DNA of 64,000 bases from an uncultured Trueperaceae bacterium. GTDB taxonomy: Bacteria > Deinococcota > Deinococci > Deinococcales > Trueperaceae. Shown here piece by piece: positions 19,831-56,064 of this stretch. Made by a program: the position numbers and the translations under genes. The notes under the pieces are model-generated. The model was not told where the DNA came from and made no database searches. It saw only the letters and a list, made by a program, of their open reading frames with translations. How positions within the stretch are numbered: position 1 is the stretch's first letter; the number at the start of each line of letters is the position of its first letter. The DNA lies in contig CAVSGP010000009.1 of NCBI GenBank assembly GCA_963727505.1, forward strand, positions 681,449 to 745,448, in the 5' to 3' direction.

Positions 19831-23215
<3,385 letters not shown>

Positions 23216-23219
<4 letters not shown>

Positions 23220-23755
23220 GCTGGCTCGATCTGGTCCTGGTGGCGGTCGTGGCCGCCGTGACCGCCTTGGGTGCCCACCGCCGACTGTCGGGCTTCTTCG
23301 TCGGTCTCGGGGGCGTGCTGCTGCTGCGCCCTCTGCTCGAGCTGGCGCATGCGAACCCGTTCCTCGCCCTGGTCGCCGCGCTTCTCGCCGGGCTCGGTTT
23401 GAGCATGCTCGGCCGGCGGTTGTTCCAGCAGAACCGTGGCTCCGCTGGCTTGATGCGCGCGCTCGGCGGTTTCGGGGGGCTCGCGCTCGGCCTGGCCCTG
23501 ATGCTCTCGCTGGTGACCTCGCTCCCGATCCAGCGCAACCCGGCCAACCCCAGCGAGCTCTTCTACCCGCCGCGGAACCTTCCTTCGCCGATCTCCAGCG
23601 CTGTGCTGGATTCGCGTTTGGTCCTTCTGGGACGTGATATTCTGTTCTATCCCTTGCTGCACAAGCAGGGGAGTGTGGACGCGGGCCAGCAGCGGCTCAT
23701 GCGCGGGTTGCACCGGCTGTTCGTGGTCGGAGAGCCGTGGAACGAGACCCTGTAG
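23216..23755 (+). CDS. CvpA-like membrane protein
   Basis: Starts MSWLDLV; about four TM helices with a RALGG..G pattern; ATGA overlap with pheT. Confidence 0.65.
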
Positions 23756-23806
23756 AGCGCCGGCGAGAGTAGGAGGGCCAGGGGCTTCCACACAGGACGT
23801 CGAGGA

Positions 23807-24036
23807 AGCGCAAGCCCGGCGGCGCGCCGATGCGGCTGCCGGTGACGAGGCGGAGGGCTTCCGGGCCCGAGGAGGGCGCCGGAGGATAGCGGGTCTCCCG
23901 AGACGATGGGTCTCGGGTGAACACGCGAAAGCGCGAACCGAGGACGCCGATGAACGGTGCACTCGCCGCCCAGCGGGGCGGGAAGTCTGCGGGCCCCTCC
24001 CGAGTTGAACCCCTTGCTCGATACCGTCCGGGTTCA
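23807..24036 (+). ncRNA. glmS ribozyme (GlcN6P-activated), structural variant
   Basis: A|GCGCAAG cleavage site (23807/23808), P1, TGACGAGG (23843-50), P2 GGAGGG/CCCTCC, P2.2 CGCA/TGCG, P3 CGAGT/GCTCG and P3.1 TGAACCC/GGGTTCA; lies in the 5' region of glmS. Confidence 0.85.
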
Positions 24037-24138
24037 GAGGATCGGGCTGTCCCCCCGAGCGAAGTCGCAACCAGACGCGGTCGGCACGGCGCGTGACGTC
24101 CGCGTAGGGCACTATTGGATCCCAAGAAGGGACGTTTC

Positions 24139-25995
<1,857 letters not shown>

Positions 25996-55739: not shown

Positions 55740-56064
55740 CATGCCACCGGGACCGTGTTCGTGCGTCGCTCAGGTCGTCTGAAGATGTGAGATGCCATCG
55801 ACGGTCGCGGGATTCGGGCGACAAGTTCGCGCGACAAGAGTGCCCCGCCGGTGGCCAACGGCACCTGACGATCACCCCTTAAGGCTGCTTCTTCCGACCT
55901 GACCTGATTCGGGGGTCGCCACCGCGTTGGGCCGGCGGGGCGTTTGCGAGCCTACCATGCGGCGGAGTGCGCGGGCTAGTCAGCGTGCGACTGCATGTCC
56001 GCGCCGGAGTCGTCACCCGCTGACTTCGCGAATGTTGAGCGGCCCCCGGCATTGTGGGAAATTT

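Follow-up and report, generated by a model that had tools for sequence, protein, structure and literature searches.

A putative P4-less variant of the glmS ribozyme with a leader helix upstream of glmS in the Trueperaceae

The glmS leader and its features

The DNA analyzed here, a stretch of 64,000 nucleotides (nt) from an uncultured Trueperaceae bacterium (assembly GCA_963727505.1, contig CAVSGP010000009.1, positions 681,449 to 745,448 of the forward strand), is referred to as the window. Within it, a gap of 384 nt separates the end of an open reading frame (ORF) at 23755 from the cell-wall gene glmS, and the RNA element that is the subject of this work (23795–24036) lies in this gap, on the same strand as glmS, in its 5′ untranslated region (5′ UTR) and about 100 nt before the gene. 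The same arrangement, the ribozyme followed by glmS, was found in relatives. The initial annotation of this DNA, made from the letters alone, had marked a rearranged glmS ribozyme at 23807–24036, inside the gap, and this was borne out: the elements were found at the places indicated and several of the helices covary in relatives. We consider it probable (roughly 80%), judging from sequence comparison, that 23795–24036 functions as a glmS ribozyme of variant structure, shared across the family. The features are collected in Table 1.

Table 1. Features of the glmS leader and of the genes around it, in window positions; a slash in A/G marks the predicted cleavage site.
Feature	Positions	Strand	Evidence or remarks
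pheT	20682–23219		TIGR00472, 598 bits
ORF of 179 amino acids	23216–23755	+	Between pheT and the ribozyme
P0, 5′ strand (leader −13 to −4)	23795–23804	+	Outer P0b, GGACG 23795–23799; inner P0a, TCGAG 23800–23804
Predicted cleavage site, A(−1)/G(+1)	23807–23808	+	Alignment of relatives to the Rfam consensus AGCGCC
P2.2, 5′ strand (CGCA)	23809–23812	+	Pairs with 23988–23991 (TGCG); 98.8% of cells paired
P1 hairpin	23816–23842	+	Two-sided changes in 6 of 8 outer pairs; 91.5% of cells paired (n = 43)
Core strand GACGAGG (B. subtilis G36–G42)	23844–23850	+	C23846 and G23847 are the P2.1 5′ strand
P2, 5′ strand (GGAGGG)	23852–23857	+	Pairs with CCCTCC 23995–24000; 100% of cells, invariant
SA, first extra core hairpin (TTCCGG/CCGGAG)	23859–23884	+	Two-sided changes in all 6 outer pairs; 94.6% of cells paired
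GATA joiner between SA and SB	23885–23888	+	GA invariant, TA at least 90%
SB, second extra core hairpin	23889–23926	+	Inner part is CCCGAGAC/GTCTCGGG; hairpin in every sequence folded
AAAGCGCGAA, equivalent of canonical UUUAUCGAA	23928–23937	+	C23934 and G23935 are the P2.1 3′ strand
SC1	23939–23965	+	Variable hairpin; per-sequence folds
SC2 (CCGCCC/GGGCGG)	23966–23981	+	Variable hairpin; per-sequence folds
GTCTGCGGG CCCCTCC	23985–24000	+	P2.2 3′ strand 23988–23991; G67 is 23992; A68→G and U69→C are 23993–23994; P2 3′ strand 23995–24000
P3 (24001–24004 with 24013–24016)	24001–24016	+	Loop holds the P3.1 5′ strand 24006–24012; 3 of 4 pairs change on both sides
P0, 3′ strand (former "linker")	24017–24029	+	CTCGA 24017–24021 pairs with P0a; TAC bulge; CGTCC 24025–24029 pairs with P0b
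P3.1, 3′ strand	24030–24036	+	Forms the pseudoknot with the P3 loop; two-sided changes in 5 of 6 pairs
P5, downstream hairpin (TCGGG/CCCGA)	24042–24058	+	C-rich 7-nt loop; 80% of cells paired (n = 20), few compensatory changes
glmS coding sequence, regulated gene	24139–25995	+	TIGR01135, 796.5 bits (cut-off 418)
Bacterial small signal recognition particle RNA	55842–55938	−	57.5 bits (gathering 40)

Conservation and covariation among relatives

When the 371-nt leader was used as a BLASTN query, a homologous leader was detected in all nine same-genus genomes, with 69–96% identity, and conserved pieces of it were found in most of the other genera of the family. Two MAFFT alignments were then available: A1, with the leaders upstream of glmS from 20 genomes, and A2, in which 23 further parsed leaders brought the number to 43 sequences, drawn from about 20 genera; one locus (G074) is truncated at its contig end. 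Counts out of 43 refer to A2. The genome guanine plus cytosine (GC) content of the relatives runs from about 39% to about 70%. In A1, 89.6% of the cells were paired, vs 33–48% when the 3′ partners were slid by 1–3 columns, and 31 of the 52 pairs changed on both sides; the corresponding values in A2 were 89.7%, 35–50% and 28 of 44. No shuffle among 500 reached any of the measures in A1 or any of the five used in A2, and the whole structure is far beyond chance. The covariation check on glmS leaders that the initial annotation had proposed gave strong support for P1, SA, P3 and P3.1 in both the 20 and the 43 sequences.

All of the sequences share one order of elements, which begins with a leader strand, two or three unpaired bases, A/GCGCAAG, P1, (T)GACGAGG, YGGAGGGC, SA and GATA(G/A), and continues with SB, (G)AAARYGCGA, SC or nothing in its place, AAGTCTGCGGGCCCCTCC, P3, a spacer of 9–16 nt and the P3.1 3′ strand.

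The 16-nt signature GTCWGCGGGCCCCTCC was used as a pattern scan of the family genomes and was found in 91 of 128 of them and in 30 of 36 genera, with no occurrence of the reversed control; an unpublished genome (G118) that served for this count alone is included, and without it the result is 90 of 127. The signature occurs in one copy per genome, two genomes excepted (G135 and G141), where it is present twice, on different contigs, and may mean two ribozyme-controlled genes. Four genomes (G016, G020, G023, and G024; loci L051, L050, L054, and L053) carry a glmS without the ribozyme motif within 500 nt upstream. In G020 the ribozyme seems to have been lost, since this genome retains the window's upstream gene, the C-terminal end of the 179-amino-acid ORF being also kept upstream of its glmS; 11 of the 18 genomes of its genus have the signature. 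A scan of public contigs for the 16-mer is no measure of distribution: among the matches listed, 80 loci were fetched, of which 70 were chance or unrelated occurrences, and at least 10 carried the ribozyme, six of them titled Trueperaceae. About 12 rumen Bacteroidales metagenome-assembled genomes (L087, L090, L099, L107, and others) have the 16-mer within a repeated GGCCCCTCCC-containing element that is unrelated to glmS.

The catalytic core

The strands that define the conserved core, A/GCGC.., GACGAGG, ..CGA.. and ..GCGG.., are all present and are invariant or nearly invariant in the 43 sequences. The cleavage-site strand (A23807/G23808, then GCGCAAG; AGCGCAAG) did not vary in any of the 43, and the same holds for ACGAGG, whose preceding G is conserved in at least 90% (C in three genomes of one genus), and, over about 20 genera, for GGAGGGC and GCGGGCCCCTCC. 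The segment 23985–24000, with TCTGCGGG at 23986–23993, is likewise invariant except for T or A at 23988. Both pairs of P2.1 are complementary, and P2 is one pair longer than in the canonical ribozyme through a change of G70 to C, which pairs with an added G. P2.2 appears as CGCA/TGCG; this form, read beforehand as a compensatory change, is real, but it is the normal state in all of the Deinococcus-like (f2), Thermus-like (f3/f4) and f5 relatives seen, which are families of the same order.

In B. subtilis, the residues that place the scissile phosphate or the cofactor are A-1, G1, A37, C38, G39, A40, G41, C54, G55, A56, U61, and G67, according to the available text of PMC11602151. All of these named residues are present and invariant in the alignment of 43 sequences, the GCGA strand at a level of at least 90% there. 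Near the pocket, two changes were found in all 43 sequences (A68→G and U69→C, in B. subtilis numbering), together with U53→G, which is common to the Deinococcus-like relatives. Altered ligand-pocket bases had indeed been proposed beforehand; such changes exist, at positions other than those suggested.

The core insertion and the P2.1 3′ strand

From the P2 5′ strand to UCGGCGG, the Rfam consensus has 12 nt and the window about 128 nt (23858–23985), confirming the multi-stem core insertion that the initial annotation had put at about 125 nt. In all of the sequences folded singly (20 of 20 and 17 of 17), the part between P2 and AAARYGCGA gave two hairpins 4–5 nt apart. These hairpins, SA and SB, are linked by conserved purine-rich GATA and GAAA. 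SB can be as short as about 8 nt or as long as about 170 nt, therefore it cannot be aligned column by column, and SC is likewise too variable in length to align. In three loci of one genus (L068–L070, genomes G055–G057), SB has grown to an AT-rich multi-stem structure of about 150–170 nt, with the core motifs intact.

SC1 and SC2 occupy the P2.1 loop, which the canonical RNA closes with A56–U61. One or two hairpins were obtained for SC in 18 of the 20 sequences folded, and SC is missing in several genera (G018, G055–57, G061–63, and G073); it is therefore dispensable. An f5 relative that passes Rfam carries a 22-nt insert at the SC position. In a relative of low GC content with a 600-nt leader (L031/L056, genome G013), the P2.1-strand motif AAAATGCGAA stands three times in tandem where SC would be. 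Four hairpins had been proposed for the insertion; SA, the inner part of SB and SC2 hold up in the folds of relatives and with partial covariation, SC1 is a further hairpin that had been missed, and the fourth of those proposed, CGC-GAAA-GCG, is not conserved.

The most conserved part of the insertion is GAAAGCGCGAA (23927–23937). Its AAA and GCGA are invariant in 20 sequences and reach at least 90% in 43, where MAFFT misaligns a few rows, and the motif AAA[AG]NGCGA was found in 43 of 43 by anchored parsing. The strand 23928–23937 matches the Rfam consensus and the Deinococcus-like AGCGAG in both position and sequence, and its predicted role is that of the P2.1 3′ strand, in which C23934–G23935 can pair with C23846–G23847. 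In the B. subtilis P2.1, C54–G55 pair with G39 and C38 of GACGAGG (C38–G55 and G39–C54) (PMC11602151, available text). The two candidates previously named for this strand, UUCCGG and UAGCGG, turned out to be the SA 5′ arm and the SA/SB joiner.

P3, P3.1, the absence of P4 and the leader helix P0

P3 covaries clearly, its first pair being CG in 12, UA in 30 and UG in 1 of the 43 sequences and its second GC in 30, GU in 8 and AU in 4. The register in which CGAG pairs with the first CTTG gives four Watson-Crick pairs in 28 of 43, whereas the previously proposed register, CGAG with CTCG, does so in 8 of 43 and is less supported. In the better supported register, CTCG is free for a helix with the 5′ leader, named P0. 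The P3.1 pseudoknot forms 4–8 base pairs (bp) in all 43 sequences, with 22 distinct 5′ strands.

P4 and P4.1 are absent from between P3 and P3.1 in 43 of 43 sequences, and no hairpin fits there; the spacer is 13 nt in the window and 9–16 nt in 42 of 43, the value of 24 (one sequence) and that of 9 (a single sequence) being parsing artefacts. In this respect, the initial annotation was right that P4 is missing from its normal place. No conserved GNRA hairpin or A-rich internal loop was found elsewhere in the RNA by the per-sequence folds and the parsing of the 43 sequences. SB and SC were considered as conserved GNRA donors and rejected, since the loops of both are freely variable, several genera have no SC and SB measures about 8–170 nt. 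The downstream hairpin P5 was also rejected as a displaced P4, because its loop is rich in C and is neither a GNRA nor an A-rich one, and because several genera lack the hairpin.

The helix P0, formed between the 5′ leader and the nucleotides that follow P3 (Table 1), had gone unnoticed in the initial annotation, and is predicted unaided by the minimum free energy (MFE) fold of the window. In A1, 94% of the P0a cells are paired. Over the 43 sequences, the first three pairs are present in all and the fourth in 42, including the compensated TGGG/CCCA (G021) and TTGAG/CTCAA (G061). The fifth pair is UA in 21, AU in 5, CG in 4 and GC in 4, and the sixth is CG in 19, GC in 6, GU in 3 and UG in 2. 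The mean contiguous length of P0 was 5.4 bp, vs 4.6 bp when the leaders were permuted among genomes (n = 43; the maximum of 1000 permutations was 5.07). With one sequence per genus (n = 20), the values were 5.55 and 4.55, and none of 1000 permutations reached the observed one. The outer part of P0 (GGAC/GTCC) changes in step in other genera, as read by eye from the strings (AGA/TCT, AACA/TGTT, and GGAAC/GTTCC). The nucleotides between P3 and P3.1 are thus no passive linker; they form a covarying helix with the leader.

The hairpin P5 begins 5 nt past P3.1, and is found in the genus and in several other genera and is missing in several. In sequence it is similar to the ribozyme's GCGGGCCCCTCCCGAG stretch. 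Whether P5 belongs to the ribozyme is uncertain.

Gene context and transcripts

Upstream of the leader lie pheT and the 179-amino-acid ORF, for which no NCBIfam match was found. The small signal recognition particle RNA is the sole Rfam family in the window. One metatranscriptome run contained 0.04 of the query words; it yielded four short contigs, less than 90% alike and belonging to a relative, which cover 23833–24064 only. In these contigs the RNA ends are not resolvable and carry-over of DNA is possible, and the parts left uncovered carry no meaning. The genome of the window also encodes RNase J (536.6 bits, cut-off 400).

Rfam detection

In the searches with the Rfam glmS model RF00234, whose gathering threshold is 37 bits, matches at E ≤ 1 were obtained in 12 of 41 genomes (40 relatives and the window's own genome). 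They were distributed as none of nine in the same genus, none of eight in f3/f4 and four of 24 in the same family, every one of the latter under the cut-off, and as four of four in both f2 and f5, of which f5 alone exceeded 37 bits; the f2 and f5 scores were 31.7–49.4 bits. The weak hits in four other genera of the family were discarded, as only the 5′ half is sensible and the 3′ half is forced onto hairpins of the insertion. Two weak Rfam hits, to sR53 and Xoo1, were also discarded as unrelated chance.

RF00234 therefore overlooks the regulator in all of the searched genomes of the window's genus and of the Thermus-like families, an annotation blind spot through which the regulation of glmS is under-annotated in this phylum.

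Interpretation

By homology, this RNA would fold into the double pseudoknot of the glmS ribozyme and, by analogy, would bind glucosamine-6-phosphate (GlcN6P) and be cleaved between A23807 and G23808. In B. subtilis, the cleavage product with a 5′-OH is degraded by RNase J1 (PMC10810187, available text); RNase J would act in the same way on the mRNA produced here, so that less GlmS would be synthesized. P4 supports the core and is not catalytic, and consequently an RNA that lacks it is still treated by homology as a divergent member of the glmS ribozymes. The core-only B. subtilis ribozyme still cleaves, though it is metastable, as reported in the same text (PMC10810187); therefore, the loss of P4 is not fatal in principle. 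In this reading, P0 would clamp both ends of the ribozyme at the point of the canonical fold from which P4 emerges, and P0 together with the four-way junction of SA and SB, with its conserved purines, would replace the buttressing of the core by P4/P4.1.

Several results weigh against the reading of 23795–24036 as a functional glmS ribozyme. RF00234 gave no match in the window at the gathering threshold, none on 23700–24160 (461 nt) at E ≤ 10 with permissive filters, and none in the whole 3.26-Mb assembly at E ≤ 10, so that the Infernal-type check suggested in the initial annotation stayed negative even at this level; the Rfam score is, though, an operational criterion of membership and not a functional one. 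A scan of 23400–24200 returned 0 promoters and 0 terminators, and so no promoter-like site. The single-sequence fold of the window is no stabler than its shuffles (z = −0.05), single-sequence thermodynamics being uninformative in GC-rich RNA. The pairs of P2, P2.1 and P2.2 never vary, which leaves covariation neutral on them, and their support is therefore homology to the solved fold. If G-U pairs are allowed, both registers of P3 pair in 36 of 43 sequences, and the fifth pair of P0 is unpaired in 9 of 43. Finally, the activity or its dependence on GlcN6P could differ from the canonical case, because A68→G and U69→C adjoin the cofactor site and the purine stack of the P4 internal loop (IL4) is absent. 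In B. subtilis, A68 lies near the cofactor site and the change A68U slows the ribozyme, and the IL4 stack is described as strictly conserved and important (PMC11602151, available text).

Beyond membership in the class, the element may tentatively be placed in an undescribed architectural subclass, a proposal that we hold to be possible and nothing firmer, in which the P4/P4.1 buttress, supposed to be indispensable, is replaced by the leader helix P0 and a purine-rich four-way core junction, with changed near-pocket bases. If this is true, P0 would hold the 5′ cleavage product by about 10 bp and, because of this and of the changed near-pocket bases, product release, the reversibility of cleavage or the response to GlcN6P may differ from those of the textbook switch.

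An unlikely alternative is a glmS-derived ribozyme with a changed use of the cofactor, which would act constitutively or be adapted to a different ligand or a different affinity. The invariance of A68G, U69C and U53G in the family, where f2, f3/f4 and f5 keep the canonical GCGGAUG, would fit such a change, as would the lowered rate of A68U in B. subtilis and the reinforcement of the pocket by IL4 (PMC11602151, available text). However, all of the residues that contact A-1/G1 or form the A37*(C38-G55) triple are kept, and the RNA is strictly linked to glmS, whose product makes GlcN6P, as GlcN6P feedback predicts.

We regard as very improbable that the element is a degenerate relic or a non-catalytic structured leader, such as a protein-binding or stability element of ribozyme descent. 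The missing Rfam match and P4, and the existence of family members without such a leader (G016, G020, G023, and G024), would be expected in that case, but the catalytic bases are invariant over about 20 genera while the helices change by compensation, the signature is maintained in 91 of 128 genomes at one copy per genome (two genomes excepted), and a relic would not retain the cleavage-site strand and both pseudoknot strands unchanged.

Weakest of all, and hardly credible, is the model of the initial annotation in which the GNRA-capped CGC-GAAA-GCG hairpin represents P4/P4.1, transplanted and docking on the core: this hairpin can form in the window, is present in the MFE and centroid folds and has A-rich flanks, but the model is unsupported because its 3′ arm and loop are the family-wide AAARYGCGA strand, aligned with the canonical UUUAUCGAA (the P2.1 3′ strand), which the hairpin would sequester in competition with P2.1, and because its 5′ arm is unconserved (8 of 43 relatives could form at least 3 contiguous bp, and 4 of 43 at least 4), its bases closing SB instead in the per-sequence folds.

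Comparison with known glmS ribozymes

The canonical glmS ribozyme (RF00234, with structures from B. subtilis, Thermoanaerobacter tengcongensis, and B. anthracis) and the glmS ribozyme variant proposed here are alike in their position in the glmS 5′ UTR, in A/GCGC, P1, GACGAGG, P2, the complementary P2.1 and P2.2 strands and the P3/P3.1 pseudoknot, and in all of the named active-site residues. They differ in that the window has SA, SB and SC (about 128 nt vs 12) and the leader helix P0, and lacks P4/P4.1, and with it the contact between the L4 GNRA loop and P1 and the IL4 purine stack. Its P2 has one more pair, A68G, U69C and U53G are changed, A5-U63 is found in P2.2, and there is no Rfam score.

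The Thermus-like families are closer to the window. In the five f3/f4 leaders analyzed (L043–L047), SA, GATAA, SB and GAAAG.TCGA are shared by all at the same position of the core, and four of the five can pair 5–6 bp with the strand just 3′ of P3 (GCGGG/CCCGC and TCGGG/CCCGA), with one compensatory change. These families, however, have between P0 and P3.1 a P4/P4.1 with a GNRA loop and an A-rich internal loop, and they keep the canonical GCGGATG; both are missing in the window's family. The glmS ribozymes of f2 (Deinococcus-like) and of f5 share with the window A/GCGCA, the TGCG strand of P2.2 and, for P2.1, a strand AGCGA or ATCGA. Those of f2 have the canonical form, to which those of f5 add a hairpin where SC lies. 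Unlike the window's family, both lack SA and SB, have a normal P4 and are detected by Rfam, and at the place of P0 they show at most 3–4 bp of GGG/CCC complementarity, with no covariation seen.

Sister families therefore present at one locus a graded series, from the canonical form to one with SA, SB and P0 together with P4, and from there to the P4-less form. Since f3/f4 share SA, SB and a short P0, the core insertion and the short P0 are older than the window's family; specific to this family, as judged from the aligned leaders, are the loss of P4, the longer P0, SC, the added pair of P2 and the replacement of GCGGAT by GCGGGC.

In 2011, McCown, Roth and Breaker reportedly described glmS ribozymes from the Deinococcus-Thermus group that have extra stems in their catalytic core and changes in the substructures supporting it, and we presume that the Thermus-like f3/f4 loci correspond to these variants. 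Additional stems within the catalytic core are present in the window as well, SA and SB, between P2 and the P2.1 strand and common to the Thermus-like loci, and, on the strength of that report, such stems are a known kind of variation. The chances are roughly even that the outline of the P4-less form is already contained in the same work. In the open full-text literature that was searched, no P4-less natural glmS ribozyme, Truepera glmS ribozyme or glmS leader helix was found.

An engineered core-only glmS ribozyme, the 3′-truncated B. subtilis construct, likewise works without the support of P3-P4 (PMC10810187, available text), but it is artificial and metastable and has no SA, SB or P0, whereas in the window's family P4 has been lost naturally and new conserved helices go with this loss. 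This family would thus be a natural demonstration that peripheral elements of quite another kind can support the glmS core, and that a whole family can dispense with the P4 internal loop, which is described as strictly conserved, when other helices are present. As the class is a known one and the expected function is the same, the interest is structural and evolutionary, with no new regulatory principle, and the comparative series from canonical to P4-less forms may be useful for studying how ribozyme peripheries are exchanged in evolution.

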